64,000 bases of DNA, taken from positions 7,270 through 71,269 of the forward strand of contig JAGASH010000001.1 of assembly GCA_017847835.1 (NCBI GenBank). The letters are read 5' to 3'. A model generated the notes under the pieces. The model had not been told where the DNA came from. It made no database searches and saw only the letters and a list, made by a program, of their open reading frames with translations. The translations under genes and the position numbers were made by a program. The number at the start of each line of letters is the position of its first letter. Position 1 is the stretch's first letter. The stretch comes from Oscillospiraceae bacterium. Its GTDB lineage: Bacteria > Bacillota > Clostridia > Oscillospirales > Ruminococcaceae. This document shows, piece after piece, positions 12,349-53,788 of this stretch.

Positions 12349-13884
12349 ATGGCTGAAATCACGATAATTCCTGCGAAAAATCAGCCGTCGGAAATTGTCC
12401 GAACTGCCGCTTACGCGCGAGTTTCAAGCGACAGCGAAGACCAGCTGAACTCGTTTGCAGCGCAAATTCGCTACTACACCGAGCTGCTCAAAAACAGCAC
12501 CGACGCGGTGCTCGTGGATATGTATGCGGACGAGGGAATCACCGGAACTTCGGCGGCAAAACGTCCGGATTTTCAGCGACTGATGAGCGACTGCCGAAAG
12601 GGAAAAATCGACCGAATTCTCACAAAATCCGTGTCAAGATTTGCGCGAAACACAACCGAATGTCTGGCGGCAGTACGCGAGCTGAAAGCGCTTGGAATAA
12701 GCGTTTACTTCGAAAAAGAGGACATCGAAACCGCCGAAATCAGCACGGAAATGCTGCTGACTTTGTACAGTCAATTCGCGCAGGAAGAGTCGATTTCAAT
12801 ATCAAAAAATGTGCGAATGGGCATCCAAAAACAAATGTCTGACGGAACCTACAAAAATCCCTCGGTGCCTTACGGTTTTATTTATGACAACGGAAAAATA
12901 ATTCCTGTCAAAGAAAAAGCAGAAACGGTTCGCCGAATTTTCAAGTGGTACGTTGATGGAATTGGAGCGGAAGAAATTTCGGTGAGATTAAACCGGATTA
13001 ACATTCCGGCACCGTACGGAAAATGCTGGCGAACAAATCAAATTCTGAGAATTCTAACCAATGAAAAATACGTCGGCGACACGCTTCTGCAAAAGAGATT
13101 CACAACAGATGCCCTTCCGTTCCGATTGGTCGAAAACCGTGGCGAGAAGCCAAAATTCTACATTCGGGAAACGCACGAGCCGATAGTTCAGCGCGAAATT
13201 TTTGACAAGGTTCAGTCGTTGCTAAAGTCAAGGAAACCAAACGTTGATTTCACATCACAAAAGAGTGTGTTCAGCGGAAAAATCAAATGCGGACGTTGCG
13301 GCTGCACATTTAGACGAAAGAAAAACCGCGAAAAAATCTATTGGGTCTGCCGAAATCACGACCATAAAAGTCTCACGGAGTGTGAAATTCGGCAAATTCG
13401 CGAAAGTGTATTTCAAGCGGCATTTGTGAGATTGTGGAACAAGCTCCAAGCGCATTACAAAGCCGTTCTTATACCAATGATAAAGCAGTTTGAAATGCTT
13501 TACGAAAAAGAAAAATCAGGTGATTTTCAGCTCGCAAATCTGCGGAGAGAAATCGCGGAAATAAAGCAGCAAATCCACTTGCTGACCGTGCTGAACTCGC
13601 AGGGAACGCTGGATGATGCGTACTTCAAATCGCGCTCGCAGGAGCTTGACAGGAAGCTGATGACAGCGCAAAAACAACTCCGCGCAAGCCTTGATGATGA
13701 GGAAAACGAACGGCTTGACGAGCTGCGAAAACTGATTGCAATTCTCGAAAAATCCGCGCAGATAACCAAATTTGACGAGATAAAATTCGGGCAAATCGTG
13801 AGCAAAATCACGGTGCTTTCGGAGTCGGAAATACGGTTCGATATAATCGGCGGAATTGGCTTTACAGAGCAGATTGAGAGGTGA
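12349..13884 (+). CDS. Large serine recombinase (resolvase + recombinase + Zn-ribbon + coiled coil)
   Basis: AAYARVSSD catalytic Ser, TKSVSRFARN, NEKYVGD, KCGRCG...WVCRNH. Confidence 0.95.
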   Translation: MAEITIIPAKNQPSEIVRTAAYARVSSDSEDQLNSFAAQIRYYTELLKNSTDAVLVDMYADEGITGTSAAKRPDFQRLMSDCRKGKIDRILTKSVSRFARNTTECLAAVRELKALGISVYFEKEDIETAEISTEMLLTLYSQFAQEESISISKNVRMGIQKQMSDGTYKNPSVPYGFIYDNGKIIPVKEKAETVRRIFKWYVDGIGAEEISVRLNRINIPAPYGKCWRTNQILRILTNEKYVGDTLLQKRFTTDALPFRLVENRGEKPKFYIRETHEPIVQREIFDKVQSLLKSRKPNVDFTSQKSVFSGKIKCGRCGCTFRRKKNREKIYWVCRNHDHKSLTECEIRQIRESVFQAAFVRLWNKLQAHYKAVLIPMIKQFEMLYEKEKSGDFQLANLRREIAEIKQQIHLLTVLNSQGTLDDAYFKSRSQELDRKLMTAQKQLRASLDDEENERLDELRKLIAILEKSAQITKFDEIKFGQIVSKITVLSESEIRFDIIGGIGFTEQIER

Positions 13885-36866: not shown

Positions 36867-36924
36867 CCTATTGACAAAGTAGGTGAATAGTGTTATAATC
36901 ATATTAGCCTACTAAACAGATAGG
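36867..36924 (+). promoter_or_regulatory. sigma-A promoter with two CCTAY-N7-RTAGG operator boxes
   Basis: TTGACA 36871-17-TATAAT 36894. Palindromes at 36867-36883 and 36908-36924. Confidence 0.75.
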
Positions 36925-36949: not shown

Positions 36950-37024
36950 ATGAAAAGCCCGCGAATTACCCGAATTTACGAACGATGTATGAAGATTTCC
37001 TCTTTGCGTGAACGAATGTGTTGA
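36950..37024 (+). CDS. Putative leader peptide MKSPRITRIYERCMKISSLRERMC
   Basis: GAGGAGG RBS; sits between the promoter and metY; ends in Met-Cys. Confidence 0.55.
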   Translation: MKSPRITRIYERCMKISSLRERMC

Positions 37025-37074: not shown

Positions 37075-38376
37075 ATGTCTGATATTAAAAAACCCGAAAA
37101 CTGGAGCTTTGAAACAAAGCAGCTGCATGTTGGTCAGGAAACCGCTGACCCGACAACCGACGCGAGAGCCGTGCCGATTTACGCGAGCACTTCTTTCGTT
37201 TTCCACAATTCACAGCACGCTGCCGACCGCTTTGGACTGCGCGATGCTGGCAACATTTACGGCAGACTTACAAATCCCACTCAGGATATTTTTGAGCGCA
37301 GAGTTGCCGCTCTCGAAGGCGGTACAGCCGCTCTGGCAACTGCTTCGGGCGCTGCCGCGATAAATTACACAATTCTGGCGCTTGCGAGAAGCGGCGAGCA
37401 TATCGTGGCTTCAAAGACAATCTACGGCGGTACATACAACCTTCTCGCGCACACTCTCCCGCTTTCTTCGGGAATTACCACGACTTTCGTTGACCCCGAC
37501 GAGGAAAATGCTTTTGAGAAGGCAATTCAGCCGAATACCAAGGCAATTTACATCGAAACTCTCGGTAACCCGAATTCAAACATCATCGATATCGAGGAAG
37601 TGGCAAAGGTTGCTCACAAACACGGTATTCCGCTTGTTGTTGACTCGACTTTTGCAACGCCTTACCTTATAAACCCGCTGAAGCACGGCGCAGATATCGT
37701 CGTTCACTCGGCAACAAAGTTTATCGGCGGTCACGGCACGGCAATCGGCGGTGTTATCGTTGACGGCGGCTTTGACTGGGCGGCTTCGGGCAAGTACCCG
37801 TGGATTTCCGAGCCTAACCCGAGCTATCACGGAGTTTCTTTCGCGGCAGCTGCGGGAAGTGCTGCTTTCGTGACTTACATTCGCGCAATTCTGCTTCGTG
37901 ACACGGGCTCGACGCTTTCGCCGTTCCACGCGTTTATCTTTCTGCAGGGACTTGAAACGCTGTCGCTTCGTGTTGAGCGTCACGTTGAAAACGCGCTGAA
38001 AATCGTTGAATATCTCAACAATCACCCGCAGGTTGAAGCGGTTCATCACCCGTCCCTTGAAACCGAGCCGAGCCACAAGCTGTACAAAAAGTACTTCCCG
38101 AACGGAGCGGGCTCGATTTTCACATTTGAAATCAAGGGCGACGACAAAACCGCACAGAAATTTATCGATAATCTCGGCATTTTCTCGCTGCTTGCGAACG
38201 TTGCCGATGTGAAATCACTTGTAATTCACCCCGCGAGCACAACCCACTCGCAGCTCACCGAGGAAGAACTCGCCGAGCAGGGTATCAAACCTAACACTAT
38301 TCGCCTGTCGATAGGCATTGAGAACATAAATGACCTTATTGCGGCGCTTGATGAAGCGTTTAAGGCTGTGCAGTAA
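37075..38376 (+). CDS. metY: O-acetylhomoserine/O-acetylserine sulfhydrylase
   Basis: GNIYGRLTNPT, ASGAAA, HSATKFIGGHG (PLP Lys), IRLSIGIE. Confidence 0.95.
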   Translation: MSDIKKPENWSFETKQLHVGQETADPTTDARAVPIYASTSFVFHNSQHAADRFGLRDAGNIYGRLTNPTQDIFERRVAALEGGTAALATASGAAAINYTILALARSGEHIVASKTIYGGTYNLLAHTLPLSSGITTTFVDPDEENAFEKAIQPNTKAIYIETLGNPNSNIIDIEEVAKVAHKHGIPLVVDSTFATPYLINPLKHGADIVVHSATKFIGGHGTAIGGVIVDGGFDWAASGKYPWISEPNPSYHGVSFAAAAGSAAFVTYIRAILLRDTGSTLSPFHAFIFLQGLETLSLRVERHVENALKIVEYLNNHPQVEAVHHPSLETEPSHKLYKKYFPNGAGSIFTFEIKGDDKTAQKFIDNLGIFSLLANVADVKSLVIHPASTTHSQLTEEELAEQGIKPNTIRLSIGIENINDLIAALDEAFKAVQ

Positions 38377-38395
38377 TTGAAAAGGAGAGATTGAT

Positions 38396-39328
38396 ATGGC
38401 TAACATTTACAAATCCGCTGATGAACTTATCGGAAAAACCCCGCTTCTTGAACTCACTCACATTGAAAAGGAGCTCGGACTTAACGCGAAGCTTATTGCA
38501 AAGCTTGAATATTTCAATCCCGCGGGTTCTGTCAAGGACAGAATTGCAAAAGCGATGATTGACGACGCTGAGGCAAGGGGTGTTCTCAACAAGAACTCGG
38601 TTATAATCGAGCCGACGAGCGGAAACACGGGTATCGGTCTTGCGTCCGTTGCGGCAGCGCGCGGTTATCGCATTATCATAGTAATGCCCGAAACGATGTC
38701 CGTTGAGCGCAGACAGCTTATGAAAGCTTACGGCGCAGAGCTTGTCCTCACAGAGGGCGCAAAGGGAATGAAGGGCGCGATTGCCAAGGCTGAGGAGCTT
38801 GCCAAGGAAATTCCCGGCGGCTTTATCCCGTCGCAGTTCACAAACCCCGCAAACCCCGAGGCTCACCGCAAAACCACCGGTCCCGAAATCTGGGAAGACA
38901 CCGACGGCAAGGTTGATATCTTTGTTGCGGGAGTAGGCACAGGCGGCACGATTACGGGTATAGGAGAGTATCTGAAGTCGAAAAATCCGAACGTGAAGGT
39001 TGTCGCGGTTGAGCCGAAGAGCTCTCCCGTGCTTTCCGAGGGCGTTGCGGGAGCGCACAAAATTCAGGGTATCGGCGCAGGCTTTGTTCCCGAAATCCTG
39101 AACACAAAGGTTTACGATGAAATTATTCCCATTGTAAACGAGGACGCTTTTGAAACAGGCAGACTTATCGGCAGAAAAGAGGGAATTCTTGTGGGAATTT
39201 CTGCGGGAGCGGCTGTTCACGCGGCAATTGAGCTTGCAAAACGTCCCGAAAACGCGGGCAAGAACATTGTTGTTCTGCTTCCCGACACGGGCGACAGATA
39301 CCTGTCAACACCGCTGTTTGCCGAATAA
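38396..39328 (+). CDS. cysK: Cysteine synthase A
   Basis: [33 protein letters not shown]. Confidence 0.97.
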
Positions 39329-39352
39329 TTTTCACCGAAAAGGGAGAAGTTT

Positions 39353-39763
39353 ATGATAACGACGCGCGGACGATATGCTTTGAGGGTTCTCATAGACCTT
39401 GCCGAGAACAACAGCGGCAGTTACACGCCGATGAAAGAAATCGCGGCGCGTCAGGGACTTTCGCAAAAGTATCTCGAACAGATTATGCCTGTTCTTATCA
39501 AGAACAGAATTGTTGACGGAATGAGCGGAAAAGGCGGCGGCTATCGGCTTGTCCGTTCACCGGAGGAGTATGTTGTCGGGGAAATTCTCTCGCTCACCGA
39601 GGGCGGTCTTGAACCGGTTTCCTGTCTTGGGTGCAGCGCAGATAAATGCGAGCGTTCCGACGACTGCCGGACTCTCCCGATGTGGAAAAAGTACAACGAG
39701 CTTACGCAGGATTTCTTTAACGGGATAACTCTTGCCGACCTGATGAAATCCGACAAAATCTGA
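39353..39763 (+). CDS. Rrf2-family regulator (CymR/IscR-like)
   Basis: ITTRGRYALR, SQKYLEQI, GKGGGYRL, three Cys (CLGC...C...C). Confidence 0.92.
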   Translation: MITTRGRYALRVLIDLAENNSGSYTPMKEIAARQGLSQKYLEQIMPVLIKNRIVDGMSGKGGGYRLVRSPEEYVVGEILSLTEGGLEPVSCLGCSADKCERSDDCRTLPMWKKYNELTQDFFNGITLADLMKSDKI

Positions 39764-48922: not shown

Positions 48923-50818
48923 ATGTATAGAAGCGGAAGAACACTTTCTGCTGTATTTATTGACATCGGGAGTAATGATTTGAAGAGTAGTACAAAGCAC
49001 ATCAAATTCGGCAGAGTTGCGCTGATTGTATCTGCGGCAACGGTACTGCTGGTTATTCTCACCTATTTTGTCCTCGTGTACAACAACGAGAACAACGCTC
49101 GGAGAACGTGCGATGTTATGGCAAATCAGGTTATCGGAATACTTGAGAAAAACAAATCGGCTGAGGAAACGCTTCTCGCGTCGCTCAAGGACGATTACAT
49201 AATCCGCGCGAAAACAGTAGCCTATATGCTTGAACACAATGCTTCTGCGGAGTATGATATAAACGAGCAGAAAAAAATCGCGGAGCTTATGTCAATCGAT
49301 GAAATCCACCTGTTTGATACGACGGGAAAGATTTATTCGGGAACAAGACCGAAATATTATGGTTTCGGCTTTGATTCCGGCGAGCAAATCGGTTATTTCA
49401 AGCCTATGCTGAACGACAAAACCCTGTCGATGTGTCAGGACGTCACACCGAATACCGCCGAGGGCAGAAGTATGATGTATGCGATTACCTGGGACAGCAC
49501 GGGAAGCAAGATGATACAGGTCGGAATTGAGCCGAAAAGACTGCTCCGAGAGCTGAACAAAAACCAGATAAGCAATGTCGTAGACAGTATTCCCATATAC
49601 GAGGATATGAGAATATTCGTGGCGGACGCTCGGACAGGCGAGGTTTTAGGTTCGTCGGACAGCAGAAACGTGAAGACGCTTCGGGATATCGGAATTGATA
49701 TCGAAAGCGCAAAACCGAACGAGGTTTCTCACTTTAAAGTCGTTAATAACGGGCTTATGAACGAGTGTTCTCTTGCTTTTGACGACGAGTACGCTGTCTG
49801 CGTTGTACAGGTAAACACCGCGGCAAAGCGCGAAACGATGTTTTCTATGCTTATTGTGGTGACTTGCCTTGCAATTGCCGCAGGAGTGCTTCTTATCGTC
49901 ATAAACCGTATCCTTATCATAAAAAAAGAGCAGATGGAGCAGCTTAATATTCTCACCTCAATGGCGGGAATTTATTACAGTATGCACCTGCTTGATATCA
50001 AAAAGAATACGATTGTTGAATATTCCGCGCGAAATCAAGTCAAGGAGATTGTGGAGAAAAACCGAAAATCAGACGCTGCCGAGGTTGTTCACGAGGTTAT
50101 GAAAGCTACGATGTCCGAGCAGTATCTTGAACAGGGACTTGAATTTTCGGAGCTTACAACGCTTGCCCAAAGACTTCGCGGAAGAAAGGTTATTTTCAAG
50201 GACTTACTCGGAAAGAATGTCGGCTGGATTAGAATGTCGTTTGTTTCGATAACCGCAGACGCCGAGGGTTTCCCCGAAAAGGTTATCTGTACAACGCAGA
50301 TTATCGACGACGAAAAGCGCCGCGAGGAACGTCTGATACGCGAGTCCACGACAGACAGACTTACTCACTGCTATAACCGCAGAGCCTATGAAAATGATAT
50401 TCGCAGTTTCTCGGATAAGCTGAGCGATGATTTCGTGTTTGTTTCGATTGACGTAAACGGTCTGAAAATGGTGAACGACACAATGGGTCACGCTGCGGGA
50501 GATGAACTTCTTTCGGGCGCTGCAAAATGTATGCGGCGCTGCTTTGAGGACGTCGGAAAGGTCTATCGCACGGGCGGAGATGAATTTGCGATTATTCTCT
50601 TTGCCGATGACGAAAAGCTCGCTGAGCTAAGGCAAGCGTTTGATAAAGCGATAAACGAGTGGTCGGGAGAAACCGTGAAGAGCCTGTCGGTGTCCTGCGG
50701 ATATGTAATGGCAAAGGAATATCCCGATTTCAGCGCAGTGGAAATCGCAAAACTTGCCGATGTGCGAATGTACGAGGCAAAAGCAGAGCATTACAGCAAA
50801 ATGCCGAGCAATGAATAA
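48923..50818 (+). CDS. Membrane diguanylate cyclase (probable start TTG 48980)
   Basis: Two TMs flanking a sensor domain; DRLTHCYNR, IDVNGLKMVND, RTGGDEF. Confidence 0.92.
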   Translation: MYRSGRTLSAVFIDIGSNDLKSSTKHIKFGRVALIVSAATVLLVILTYFVLVYNNENNARRTCDVMANQVIGILEKNKSAEETLLASLKDDYIIRAKTVAYMLEHNASAEYDINEQKKIAELMSIDEIHLFDTTGKIYSGTRPKYYGFGFDSGEQIGYFKPMLNDKTLSMCQDVTPNTAEGRSMMYAITWDSTGSKMIQVGIEPKRLLRELNKNQISNVVDSIPIYEDMRIFVADARTGEVLGSSDSRNVKTLRDIGIDIESAKPNEVSHFKVVNNGLMNECSLAFDDEYAVCVVQVNTAAKRETMFSMLIVVTCLAIAAGVLLIVINRILIIKKEQMEQLNILTSMAGIYYSMHLLDIKKNTIVEYSARNQVKEIVEKNRKSDAAEVVHEVMKATMSEQYLEQGLEFSELTTLAQRLRGRKVIFKDLLGKNVGWIRMSFVSITADAEGFPEKVICTTQIIDDEKRREERLIRESTTDRLTHCYNRRAYENDIRSFSDKLSDDFVFVSIDVNGLKMVNDTMGHAAGDELLSGAAKCMRRCFEDVGKVYRTGGDEFAIILFADDEKLAELRQAFDKAINEWSGETVKSLSVSCGYVMAKEYPDFSAVEIAKLADVRMYEAKAEHYSKMPSNE

Positions 50819-50957
50819 AATTACAGCGGACTGTGCCGACAGCCCGCTGTTTTCTGCAAAAAACGGTATTTTTATGGAATGATACAGTTTTCTGCGTCAA
50901 ATTATACAAAACAGGCAAACAGAGTTGAAATATTATTGTGCGATAATTTTGATAAAA

Positions 50958-50990
50958 CCTATTGACAATATAGGAAAAGTGTGATATAAT
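50958..50990 (+). promoter_or_regulatory. metNIQ promoter with CCTAT-N7-ATAGG operator over the -35
   Basis: cctattgacaatatagg at 50958-50974; TTGACA 50962-17-TATAAT 50985. Confidence 0.78.
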
Positions 50991-51022
50991 ACAAACATAA
51001 TCAAACGAAAGGAGCAGACGGT

Positions 51023-51079
51023 ATGAAAATGATGTGTATGATGAAAAAATTGAATATTCTTGCCGTGTGCTGCGGATAA
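51023..51079 (+). CDS. Met/Cys-rich leader peptide MKMMCMMKKLNILAVCCG
   Basis: AAAGGAG RBS; 5 Met and 3 Cys in 18 codons, directly upstream of the terminator and metN. Confidence 0.8.
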   Translation: MKMMCMMKKLNILAVCCG

Positions 51080-51098
51080 ATTCCTTTAAGGATAATTC

Positions 51099-51134
51099 TG
51101 ACAGGCATTGCAAGGTGCTTGTCATTTTTTATTT
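51099..51134 (+). terminator. Attenuator terminator upstream of metN
   Basis: tgacaggcat-loop-gtgcttgtca followed by ttttttattt. Confidence 0.75.
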
Positions 51135-51148
51135 CGGGAGGAAAAAAC

Positions 51149-52126
51149 GTGATTGAACTGAAAAATTTAAGCAAGACCTATCCTAACGGAGTGACCGCTC
51201 TGAATGATATCAACATCACCATAAACGACGGCGAAATCTTCGGGATAATCGGTCTTTCGGGAGCTGGCAAAAGCACGCTTATCCGATGTATAAACTACCT
51301 TGAAAAACCCACCTCGGGAGATGTAATCATAGACGGGCAAAACCTCGGCGAGCTCTCGAAAAAAGAGCTTCTCAAAACGCGTCAGAATATCGGAATGATT
51401 TTTCAGGGGTTTAATTTGCTGTCCCAGCGAAACGTCATCGGAAACATCTGTTATCCGCTTGAAATCGCGGGCGTGAAAAAAGTCGACGCAATAAAACGCG
51501 CTGAGGAGCTGCTGGAGCTTGTCGGGCTTACCGACAAAGCAAAAGCGTATCCGTCGCAGCTTTCGGGCGGTCAGAAGCAGAGAGTTGCCATAGCGAGAGC
51601 GCTTGCGGCAAAGACGAGCTATCTGCTCTGCGACGAAGCAACGAGCGCGCTCGACCCCGACACGACAAGCTCAATTCTGGAGCTTATGCGTAAAATCAAC
51701 AAAACGCTCGGCGTCACGATTGTCGTGATAACGCACGAGATGAAGGTTATCGACAAAATCTGCGACAGGGTTGCGGTTCTCGACCAAAGCACGGTTGCGG
51801 AAATCGGAAACGTCCGCGATGTTTTCACGACACCGAAATCGGCGATTGCGAAAAAGCTGGTTCTTCCCGAAGCGAAGGCTGTCGAGGAGATTACAGGCGG
51901 GAAGAAAATCAGAATTGTGTTTAACGGGGAGAATTCCTTCAAGCCCGTAATCGCAAATCTCGTGCTGGAATGCGGAGTTCCCGTGAACATTCTGCACGCT
52001 GATACAAAGGATATCGACGGAAAGGCTTTCGGGCAGATTTTGCTCGGGCTTCCCGACGACGACAGAAGCGCAGAGAGAATACGCGCTTATCTGAACTCAA
52101 ACGAGATAAGCTATTCGGAAATCTGA
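51149..52126 (+). CDS. metN: Methionine ABC transporter ATPase
   Basis: GLSGAGKST, LSGGQKQRVAIARA, CDEATSALDP, C-terminal NIL domain; GTG start. Confidence 0.95.
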   Translation: MIELKNLSKTYPNGVTALNDINITINDGEIFGIIGLSGAGKSTLIRCINYLEKPTSGDVIIDGQNLGELSKKELLKTRQNIGMIFQGFNLLSQRNVIGNICYPLEIAGVKKVDAIKRAEELLELVGLTDKAKAYPSQLSGGQKQRVAIARALAAKTSYLLCDEATSALDPDTTSSILELMRKINKTLGVTIVVITHEMKVIDKICDRVAVLDQSTVAEIGNVRDVFTTPKSAIAKKLVLPEAKAVEEITGGKKIRIVFNGENSFKPVIANLVLECGVPVNILHADTKDIDGKAFGQILLGLPDDDRSAERIRAYLNSNEISYSEI

Positions 52127-52143
52127 GGAAAGGAAGATGAAAA

Positions 52144-52821
52144 ATGAACGGCGACCTGCTTTCACAGCTTATCGACAAGGGCATTTTGCAGCTTGGTGTA
52201 TGGGAAACCATTTATCTTACCTTTATTTCCGCGTTTTTCGCGTATCTTTTCGGACTTCCGCTGGGAATTCTGCTGAGCGTCACGGATAAAGGCGGGATAA
52301 GACCGATACCGTGGCTGAACAAAATTCTCGGCTTTATCGTCAACATTTTCCGCAGTATTCCGTTTGTGATTTTGATGATTGCGGTACTTCCCGCGGCAAA
52401 GCTTATCGTGGGAACGGCACTCGGAAACAAGGCGGCTATTGTGACGCTGATAATTGCGGCTGTTCCTTATGTCGCGCGAATGGTTGAAAGCTCGATAAAA
52501 GAGGTTGACAGCGGCGTTATCGAGGCGGCTCAGGCAATGGGCACGTCCTCGTTCAAAATCGTATTTAAGGTGCTTATTCCCGAGGCAAAGCCCTCGCTGC
52601 TTGTAGGCTCGGTTATTTCGCTGGTAACCATTCTCGGCTACTCGGCAATGGCTGGAACAATCGGCGGCGGAGGACTTGGAATGATTGCCATAAACTTCGG
52701 CTATCAGCGCTTTAATGACAATGTAACCTGGATTTGCGTTCTGCTCACGGTTATAATCGTGCAGATTATTCAGGAAGTCGGAATGCTTATCGCAAGAAAA
52801 ACCGACAAACGCACAAAATAA
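52144..52821 (+). CDS. metI: Methionine ABC transporter permease
   Basis: FRSIPFVILM, EAAQAMG, GGGGLG. Confidence 0.95.
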   Translation: MNGDLLSQLIDKGILQLGVWETIYLTFISAFFAYLFGLPLGILLSVTDKGGIRPIPWLNKILGFIVNIFRSIPFVILMIAVLPAAKLIVGTALGNKAAIVTLIIAAVPYVARMVESSIKEVDSGVIEAAQAMGTSSFKIVFKVLIPEAKPSLLVGSVISLVTILGYSAMAGTIGGGGLGMIAINFGYQRFNDNVTWICVLLTVIIVQIIQEVGMLIARKTDKRTK

Positions 52822-52954
52822 GGAGTGTGAAAAAATGCTTCATTTACTTGAACGGCTTTTGAGAGAGAATTACAGGTTCGGACGAATGCAAAAGTGTTGC
52901 CGATAATCGAACCGAAAATAACAAAATACAATTGAAATTAAGGAGAAATTTATT

Positions 52955-53788
52955 ATGAAAATCAAATCTTTTGCTTCTGCGTTTATCGCAGCAACTCTTT
53001 CTGTTCTTGCGCTTACGGGCTGCAACAATGCTTCAAAACCCGCCGAAAAGACCGTTATTAAGGTTGGCGCGACTTCCACACCGCACGGAGAAATCCTCGA
53101 ATATATCAAGGAGGACCTTGCAGAACAGGGCTATGACCTGCAGATTACCATTTATGACGACTATGTTTTGCCGAACAAGGCTCTTGCTGACGGCGAGCTT
53201 GACGCAAACTACTTCCAGCACACGCCTTACCTCGACAGCTACAACAAATCCAACGGAACCGACCTTGTTTCTGCGGCTTCTATTCACTACGAGCCGTTCG
53301 GACTTTACGGAAACGGTGTTGACAGCGTGAAGAACGTGGCTGCGGGCGCAAGCATTGTCATTCCTGCGGACGACAGCAATGAAACCAGAGCGCTTCTGCT
53401 TCTCGCACAGGAAGGACTTATCACGCTTCCCGAGGGTGCAAACGCGGTTGACGGTGTGACAACGCTCGATATCGTGGACGACCACGGCTTCAAGATTTCC
53501 ACGGTTAAGGCAGACACGGTTGCCGCACAGTTCAACAACAGCGACAAGGGCTCGCTTGCCGTAATCAACGGAAACTACGCTCTTGCAGCGGGACTTAACG
53601 CAAAGGAAGCGCTTGCCGTTGAGGACGCGTCGGGCTCGGCTGCACAGACCTATGCGAACATAATCGCAGTAAGAAAGGGCGAGGAGAGCTCAGACAAGAT
53701 AAACGCGCTTATAAAGGCGCTCAAAACCGACAATGTTAAAAAGTATATCGACGAAACCTATAAAGGTGCGGTAATCGCAATCTTCTAA
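52955..53788 (+). CDS. metQ: Methionine-binding lipoprotein (NlpA family)
   Basis: Lipobox LTGC, DANYFQHTPYL, NETRALLLL, INGNYA. Confidence 0.94.
   Translation: MKIKSFASAFIAATLSVLALTGCNNASKPAEKTVIKVGATSTPHGEILEYIKEDLAEQGYDLQITIYDDYVLPNKALADGELDANYFQHTPYLDSYNKSNGTDLVSAASIHYEPFGLYGNGVDSVKNVAAGASIVIPADDSNETRALLLLAQEGLITLPEGANAVDGVTTLDIVDDHGFKISTVKADTVAAQFNNSDKGSLAVINGNYALAAGLNAKEALAVEDASGSAAQTYANIIAVRKGEESSDKINALIKALKTDNVKKYIDETYKGAVIAIF

Follow-up and report, generated by a model that had tools for sequence, protein, structure and literature searches.

Candidate ribosome-mediated attenuator with a methionine- and cysteine-rich leader upstream of metNIQ in Oscillospiraceae

Introduction

The classical leader-peptide attenuators are trpL, hisL, pheL, leuL, thrL and ilvL of Proteobacteria. 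The textbook list of amino acids that leader peptides sense does not, to our knowledge, include methionine. In Firmicutes, methionine genes serve as the usual illustration of S-box and T-box regulation.

Methionine leader peptides have so far only been predicted, in Streptomyces and Campylobacter. In Streptomyces lividans TK24, metL, located before metNIQ, was annotated as a methionine leader peptide, a prediction made from a transcriptome map (PMC8079986). In Campylobacter jejuni, Ribo-seq/TIS showed translation initiation at MetL and at CJsORF19 (MMYQMR), which precedes the gene of a D-methionine-binding protein, and both were proposed as leader peptides (PMC11955535). Two further systems use cysteine codons. 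These are the polycysteine leaderless uORF attenuators of mycobacteria (bioRxiv 10.1101/834739) and the Cys motif uORFC-8-2 before cysS in Rhodobacterales, which ends in a terminator (PMC8632094). A histidine leader peptide has been reported in Bacilli, a Firmicute case (PMC2965389). Our literature search turned up no Met leader peptide described for Clostridia.

Here we analyze a window of 64,000 nucleotides from an Oscillospiraceae genome, in which a Met-rich short open reading frame (sORF) lies just upstream of the methionine importer operon metNIQ. A prior sequence-only reading of this DNA had proposed a ribosome-mediated methionine attenuator at this site. It took S-box and T-box RNAs to be the usual control of methionine transport in Firmicutes, and it regarded peptide attenuators as typical of proteobacterial and actinobacterial operons for other amino acids. 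The latter generalization holds only in part, given the his leader in Bacilli (PMC2965389).

Layout of the metNIQ leader region

All elements that had been named from sequence, including a leader with five Met and three Cys codons and a terminator at 51099-51134 directly before metN, were found in the DNA where they had been placed. The features of the region, in window coordinates, are as follows.

50958-50974, + strand: operator-like palindrome CCTATTGACAATATAGG, overlapping the -35 of the metNIQ promoter
50962-50990, + strand: sigma-70-type promoter, TTGACA (50962-50967), 17 nt, TG-n-TATAAT (50982-50990)
51007-51014, + strand: Shine-Dalgarno (SD) sequence of the leader sORF, GAAAGGAG, 8 nt before the ATG at 51023, with AGGAG at 51010-51014
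51015-51025, + strand: segment 1, CAGACGGUAUG, including the leader AUG; its partner is segment 2
51023-51079, + strand: leader sORF MKMMCMMKKLNILAVCCG, 18 codons, ATG at 51023, TAA at 51077-51079
51029-51043, + strand: regulatory codon run AUG AUG UGU AUG AUG (Met3, Met4, Cys5, Met6, Met7), the proposed stalling site
51059-51076, + strand: segment 2, the 3' end of the sORF (codons 13-18), partner of segment 1 (via 51059-51069) or segment 3 (via 51061-51076)
51082-51092, + strand: small spacer hairpin UCCUUUAAGGA between segments 2 and 3, seen in folds
51097-51112, + strand: segment 3, the 5' arm and loop of the terminator and the alternative partner of segment 2 (candidate antiterminator)
51099-51134, + strand: intrinsic terminator, a hairpin at 51099-51124 (3:4; 11 pairs, loop of 4) followed by the U-tract TTTTTTATTT at 51125-51134
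51136-53788, + strand: metNIQ, the putatively regulated operon, including the metN SD
51149-52126, + strand: metN, GTG start, SD GGGAGG at 51136-51141, Pfam ABC_tran and NIL
52144-52821, + strand: metI, Pfam BPD_transp_1
52955-53788, + strand: metQ, Pfam NlpA lipoprotein

The promoter matches the consensus at 12 of 12 positions and adds an extended -10 TG. Counted only from the promoter spacing, the transcript would start at about 50997, some 25 nt 5' of the leader sORF and only about 150 nt from metN. The upstream neighbor is a GGDEF-domain gene (48923-50818, Pfam) with its own hairpin and T-run at 50823-50855. The terminator hairpin before metN has a dG of -13.7. MetN, MetI and MetQ were identified with Pfam and NCBIfam, the best NCBIfam matches being MetN and MetQ/NlpA.

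This layout resembles classical trpL-type attenuators. An SD-led short ORF carries a run of cognate codons, the predicted pairings 1:2, 2:3 and 3:4 exclude one another, an intrinsic terminator precedes the first structural gene, and termination would be the default. Unlike trpL-type leaders, this one has Met codons with interleaved Cys, would control an importer rather than a biosynthetic operon, and belongs to a host in the Clostridia (Oscillospiraceae/Ruminococcaceae). Segment 1 consists of the leader's own AUG region, not of the regulatory codons, and there is no sequence relationship.

The S. lividans metL likewise precedes metNIQ and mixes Cys with Met in a short ORF (…GARCMCRRMCAF; …CMCRRMCAF). 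It differs in being actinobacterial and leaderless, in its length of 29 aa and in the C-terminal position of its Met/Cys run, and its authors found no typical intrinsic terminator (PMC8079986). Homology of the two leaders is unlikely. The C. jejuni sORFs share the enrichment of Met codons before methionine genes; they differ in being epsilonproteobacterial, very short and free of Cys, and they were reported without an attenuator structure or a Met response. In the mycobacterial and Rhodobacterales uORFs, as proposed here, stalling on codons for a sulfur amino acid controls downstream genes. Those uORFs differ in having consecutive Cys codons only, in being leaderless (mycobacteria) or alphaproteobacterial, and in their target genes. 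The present leader falls outside the mycobacterial leaderless polycysteine class, with an SD, a putative 5' UTR of about 25 nt and a Met-dominated run. The T-box (RF00230) and SAM-I (RF00162) leaders of Firmicute met genes share its output, a terminator versus an antiterminator, and T-box leaders also share its position (before metN in distant orthologs) and the readout of tRNA charging. The present leader differs from both in having neither fold, in its size of about 150 nt, and in its sensor, which in our model would be the translating ribosome and not an aptamer or a tRNA-binding RNA.

Recurrence at related metN loci

MetN was searched for over 200 genomes of the same family, and further genome contigs were scanned, yielding 110 loci. 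At 52 loci MetN is at least 63% identical, and at about 45 of them, read by eye, a differently spelled Met/Cys-rich sORF and a terminator occupy the same place, a count over related genomes, which are non-independent samples. A strict automatic rule that required both sORF and terminator (at least four Met or Cys within 10 codons, an SD, and a hairpin no weaker than -7 kcal/mol with a T-run behind it) accepted 42 of all 110 loci. The automatic picker missed some true leaders without its SD pattern or T-run (L047, L050-L053, L072, L082 and L083). One of its positives, L028, was a far-upstream sORF; it was treated as a false positive and kept out of the statistics. The same-genus genomes G195 and G051 gave no close MetN ortholog with this query.

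Among the closest orthologs, an SD-led Met/Cys-rich sORF followed by a terminator is always present, and the sequences differ. Examples are MMFMRMMEMCMC…, MRMCEMCGMCC…, MLMMCMCAMCMM…, MTMMMCMMC… and the leader of Huintestinicola butyrica (MMAMMMCKCC…; MMAMMMCKCCEMN…; locus L048, leader MMAMMMCKCCEMNIEKSAVSSAFCE). Further leaders at metN orthologs are MTMMCMMRIEQNNRAVRCG, MTMMMCMMCQFVLCSRTVQ, MMFMRMMEMCMCRR…, MRMCEMCGMCCIQ…, MISCISMSMCIMSC…, MLMMCMCAMCMMRAE… and MARYAMMTGMMMCMCSMCMFC…. The equivalent of the Met/Cys cluster at 51029-51043 is present in the orthologs while the remaining peptide varies. By record title, the carriers are gut and rumen bacteria labeled Oscillospiraceae, Ruminococcaceae, Ruminiclostridium or uncultured Clostridia.

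T-boxes appear at more distant metN orthologs. In six, the T-box lies directly upstream and passes the Rfam gathering score, and a GGTGGTACC box is visible upstream of others. Two different sensors of tRNA charging thereby share one slot before metN within one bacterial family. Since the T-box in this slot also reads tRNA charging, the arrangement at metN looks like a sensor swap. The T-boxes of these distant orthologs, together with a SAM-I riboswitch that occurs once in the genome, before metK, bear out the assumption that S-box and T-box RNAs are the usual Firmicute control.

Probable translation of the leader

We aligned the window leader with those of its 11 closest relatives (alignment A1, 12 leaders in all). 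Every indel within the Met/Cys run measures 3, 6 or 12 nt, a multiple of three, and indels 3' of the stop codon are free of that constraint. The SD GAAAGGAG and the start codon are kept in all 12 leaders. Outside the run, the peptide is not conserved as a protein (…AVCCG, …AVRC, …AVQ, …ALRSL). The combination of frame-keeping indels, a conserved SD and start codon, and a non-conserved peptide points to translation itself, not the peptide product, as what matters. We infer that the sORF is translated and that ribosomes stall on the Met/Cys run. A search of public sequencing runs listed no RNA run containing this sequence, and three runs of unspecified kind contained less than a quarter of the sampled words.

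Alternative helices predicted in the leader RNA

The sequence-only reading had paired TGCCGTGT (51061-51068) with ACAGGCA (51101-51107) in the terminator. The positions were right. That exact register gives 4+3 pairs with a bulge, and it was replaced by a longer, shifted one common to the alignment, 51061-51076 with 51097-51112 (2:3). A second helix, 1:2, had been absent from that account and is added here.

RNAalifold on A1 predicts two helices, the terminator and 1:2 (51015-51025 with 51059-51069). Helix 1:2 is 91.7% paired across A1, with compensatory changes in four of its nine pairs, and has the best covariation support of all leader helices. The terminator, 3:4, is 97.9% paired with two compensatory pairs. 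For the combined 1:2 plus 3:4 structure, 95.1% of cells are paired and seven pairs are changed on both sides, for example column 15:90 (CG 5, UA 5) and column 20:85 (GC 4, GU 4, AU 3). This score was reached by 0 of 500 shuffles, and slid controls were 24-52% paired. In the window, the 1:2 duplex has an energy of -21.2 kcal/mol (z -4.4).

The 2:3 duplex is weaker. In the window (51061-51076 with 51097-51112) its dG is -14.4, marginally above chance against dinucleotide shuffles (z -2.0, p ~0.04). The same register occurs in 12 of 12 A1 leaders, with dG from -12 to -16.5, and encloses the spacer hairpin at 51082-51092. The equivalent of that hairpin, ATTATTCC...GGATAAT, is kept in A1, and L033 is altered on both sides (read by eye). 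For 2:3, 78.9% of A1 cells are paired, versus 14-48% with the partner slid. Covariation across related metN leaders, which had been proposed as a check, was found for 1:2 and 3:4; for 2:3 it was not above shuffles in the 12 leaders of A1, because the columns are too conserved. The antiterminator thus appears to be conserved as complementarity, and covariation gives no proof of it.

The geometry is compatible with an antiterminator that a ribosome at the stop codon would cover and one stalled on the regulatory codons would leave free. The last regulatory codon ends at 51043, segment 2 spans 51061-51076 in the 2:3 register, and the stop codon follows at 51077. In a wider set of 37 non-identical leaders, drawn from several lineages, the mean z is -2.5 for the best 1:2 duplex (19 below -2) and -1.5 for the best 2:3 duplex (8 below -2). 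The two duplexes overlap on segment 2 in 37 of 37. Orthologs L012 and L067 had no convincing antiterminator in the duplex-versus-shuffle tests.

Folding with and without a ribosome

We folded the window leader as a snapshot, the RNA as it exists before segment 4 emerges. Without a ribosome, segment 2 is held by segment 1 with a probability of 0.80, and 2:3 forms with 0.12. A ribosome placed on the Met codons covers segment 1 or keeps it from pairing, and the probability of 2:3 rises to 0.79-0.80. When the ribosome is placed at the stop codon, it masks segment 2, and 2:3 falls to 0. These snapshots show the switch that the model predicts.

Equilibrium folding gives a different picture. The terminator is ahead in most ribosome states (P 0.76-0.94) and roughly tied only for a stall at Met7 (P 0.42-0.53 over two masking schemes). 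Ribosome-masked equilibrium folds of eight orthologs favored the terminator in nearly all states, and the antiterminator was dominant only in L021. Thermodynamics alone, as modeled, does not show the switch. Since the terminator is at least as good once segment 4 is present, read-through would have to be kinetic and co-transcriptional. Read-through in the trp attenuator is kinetic.

The L021 leader (G126:C39; MAMTAICASAFSCSFGMRMQSS…) belongs to a more distant metN locus. Its antiterminator has an energy of -22.8 kcal/mol versus -17.0 for its terminator and is the default fold when no ribosome is present, which makes this leader a two-state version of the design.

Proposed mechanism

The elements of the locus are complete and ordered (promoter, SD, sORF, terminator, metN). 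Together with the density of Met codons, the recurrence and the helices, this leads us to read the leader, with good though not full confidence, as a trp-type ribosome-mediated transcription attenuator. It would report charged tRNA-Met, and secondarily charged tRNA-Cys, to the metNIQ importer. The original proposal of a Met attenuator is supported by the recurrence, by the frame-keeping indels, and by its antiterminator strand, which proves to be the strand that two mutually exclusive helices share.

With no ribosome on the leader, or once the ribosome has gone, segments 1 and 2 would pair, leaving segment 3 free for segment 4. The terminator hairpin and U-tract would then form, and transcription would stop before metN. 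Helix 1:2 would make termination the default state. Smooth translation to the UAA at 51077 would have the same outcome, the ribosome covering segment 2 and the terminator forming. A stall on Met3-Met4-Cys5-Met6-Met7 would occupy segment 1 or hold it apart, and segment 2 would be free. Free segment 2 could pair with segment 3 before segment 4 is made. No terminator would form, and the polymerase would enter metNIQ. The kinetic competition, and a response to the supply of Met and Cys, are predicted parts of this mechanism.

Some features of the leader can be read within this mechanism. Cys16 and Cys17 lie in segment 2, and we read them as structural rather than regulatory because a stall there would favor termination. 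The leader AUG is part of helix 1:2, so this helix may also restrict the leader to a single round of translation. Occlusion of the ribosome-binding site of a similar kind is reportedly described for the E. coli trp leader. A shortage of methionine would also limit the charging of initiator tRNA, which is a complication for initiation on the leader.

The promoter palindrome and cysteine as a possible signal

The palindrome that overlaps the -35 of the metNIQ promoter has counterparts at other sulfur genes. Those in the window are the following.

36867-36883 and 36908-36924: candidate operators of the OAH/OAS sulfhydrylase operon
37075-39763: operon of OAH/OAS sulfhydrylase, cysK and Rrf2-regulator genes
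39353-39763: Rrf2-family (CymR/IscR-like) regulator gene, best NCBIfam matches IscR and CymR, all below cut-offs

In the genome, a near-identical 17-mer, CCTATTGACAAAGTAGG, lies over the -35 at three further promoters, and in two of these three a second copy (CCTACTAAACAGATAGG or CCTACTCAAACAATAGG) lies just past the -10. The genes behind them are the OAH/OAS sulfhydrylase-cysK-Rrf2 operon, a second sulfhydrylase-like gene and a NifS cysteine desulfurase. The sites, at 36867-36883, 36908-36924 and 50958-50974 of the window and at C13:25173, C16:526324, C16:526364 and C13:13245 of the genome, follow the consensus CCTAyTnAmAnnnTAGG and overlap the -35 and/or follow the -10. At the promoter of a sulfate/sulfonate-type ABC transporter, a half-site lies behind the -10. 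The palindrome is kept at the metN promoters of relatives L033-L043, and a CATAC…ATAGG form is found at sulfhydrylase promoters across the family. The palindrome probably serves as operator for the Rrf2 (CymR/IscR-like) regulator whose gene lies at 39353-39763, in what would be an autoregulated sulfur regulon. The Rrf2 protein would then repress the regulon, metNIQ included, and a second, independent control of metNIQ at initiation through the candidate operator is likely.

The same palindrome could support a variant of the attenuator in which the architecture is unchanged and the relevant signal is cysteine, or general sulfur-amino-acid status, with methionine imported as a source of cysteine. 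The OAH/OAS sulfhydrylase, cysK and cysteine desulfurase promoters share the palindrome, near an Rrf2 (CymR/IscR-like) gene. Cys codons are also interleaved with Met in nearly all ortholog leaders, in some equally, as in MRMCEMCGMCC. However, the stalling run of the window leader has four Met codons and only one Cys, and the other two Cys codons fall in segment 2, where a stall would favor termination. The closest 12 leaders are dominated by Met, and the genes under control are those of a methionine importer. We regard cysteine as an unlikely primary signal.

Known RNA families and a possible translation-independent switch

An alternative that dispenses with the ribosome is an RNA switch that binds a ligand, a protein or a tRNA, with the open frame incidental. 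Such RNAs are common for Met genes in Firmicutes. The leader is structured, its 156 nt folding at -42.1 kcal/mol versus -29.8 ± 3.7 in dinucleotide shuffles (z -3.3), and its helices covary. An Rfam search of 50700-51300 at a permissive E of up to 10 nevertheless returned no family, only snoRNA and sRNA models far below their cut-offs. The covariance models for SAM-I (RF00162) and T-box (RF00230) gave no match in 50700-51300 even at that E value, and there are only about 150 nt between the predicted start and metN. The region that varies among orthologs is an in-frame AUG/UGY run with multiple-of-three indels, and SD and start codon are kept in every ortholog. Both argue for translation, and we consider an RNA switch improbable.

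Elsewhere in the genome, the T-box model has five matches. The sole SAM-I riboswitch, before metK, lies at C21:3795-3925 (L112 1501-1631). One T-box, at C21:3406-3673, is on the opposite strand to this riboswitch and divergent from it, and precedes an isopropylmalate-synthase-like gene.

Less likely readings: a functional peptide or a chance frame

A further alternative is that the sORF encodes a functional Met/Cys-rich peptide (metal- or redox-active, or the precursor of a modified peptide), and that the hairpin is merely its terminator, without attenuation. The good SD, the strong promoter of its own and the conserved Met/Cys-rich composition would suit such a gene. Its product, however, ranges from 18 to 45 aa and varies in sequence outside the Met/Cys run. 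The conserved 3' part follows the RNA pairing, since endings as different as AVCCG, AVRC, AVQ and ALRSL all retain helix 1:2. The sORF is always directly 5' of metN, whose SD is 12-25 nt past the terminator with no separate promoter seen, and mutually exclusive helices would be purposeless in a peptide gene. A functional peptide is therefore very improbable as the explanation.

As a census, we listed all sORFs of the 2.18 Mb genome with an ATG start, 8-60 codons and an SD-like motif (n=1325). The leader sORF alone has four internal Met in an 8-codon window; 10 others have three. With four internal Met and one Cys, its codons 3-7 show an enrichment that matches a methionine-import operon. Short ORFs are frequent and AT-rich leaders are rich in ATGs, but a chance sORF beside an ordinary hairpin is already contradicted by the comparative data, as the leader is the unique extreme of the 1325, recurs over dozens of genera with different sequences and covaries, and we give this reading almost no weight.

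Discussion

The attenuation mechanism that we propose for metNIQ is a textbook one. Its interest lies in the amino acid, in the Cys codons mixed in, in the host group and in the apparent swap with the T-box. We lean, with little more than even confidence, towards a broader view. In it, an undescribed and widespread family of Met/Cys attenuators would have replaced T-box control of methionine import in many gut and rumen Oscillospiraceae. Its stalling run would be dual, for Met and Cys, and it would act on top of an Rrf2/CymR-like operator, with initiation and elongation of metNIQ transcription reading different sulfur signals.

If this is true, the use of the ribosome as a sensor evolved for methionine too, though methionine also initiates the leader peptide. 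Within one bacterial family, a T-box and a leader peptide would be able to replace each other as the sensor at a locus. There would also be a simple annotation rule for a class of regulatory sORFs that currently go unannotated.

Other leader-like sORFs

Two other kinds of SD-led sORF were seen in this genome. The first, MTTMTMITTMTTRLRS… at C5:133771-133947, has seven Thr in its first 12 codons and may be a threonine-type leader or a product of chance.

The second kind lies upstream of sulfur genes. MKSPRITRIYERCMKISSLRERMC, at 36950-37024 of the window, is upstream of the OAH/OAS sulfhydrylase, and MNNKYLLYGRMCCQNRC, at C13 ~13290-13345, is upstream of an ABC transporter; this kind of sORF is also found in relatives L122-L139. 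The fold of the window copy is no better than shuffles (z -0.8), and most such sORFs in this genome are without an obvious terminator. About 15 of 20 family members examined share a conserved Arg-Met-Cys motif, nearly always spelled CGA-AUG-UGY, in forms such as GRMCC, SRMCR, ARMCCCCC, NGRMCRC and RYCRM. This may represent a separate type of leader that senses cysteine, or a stalling motif.
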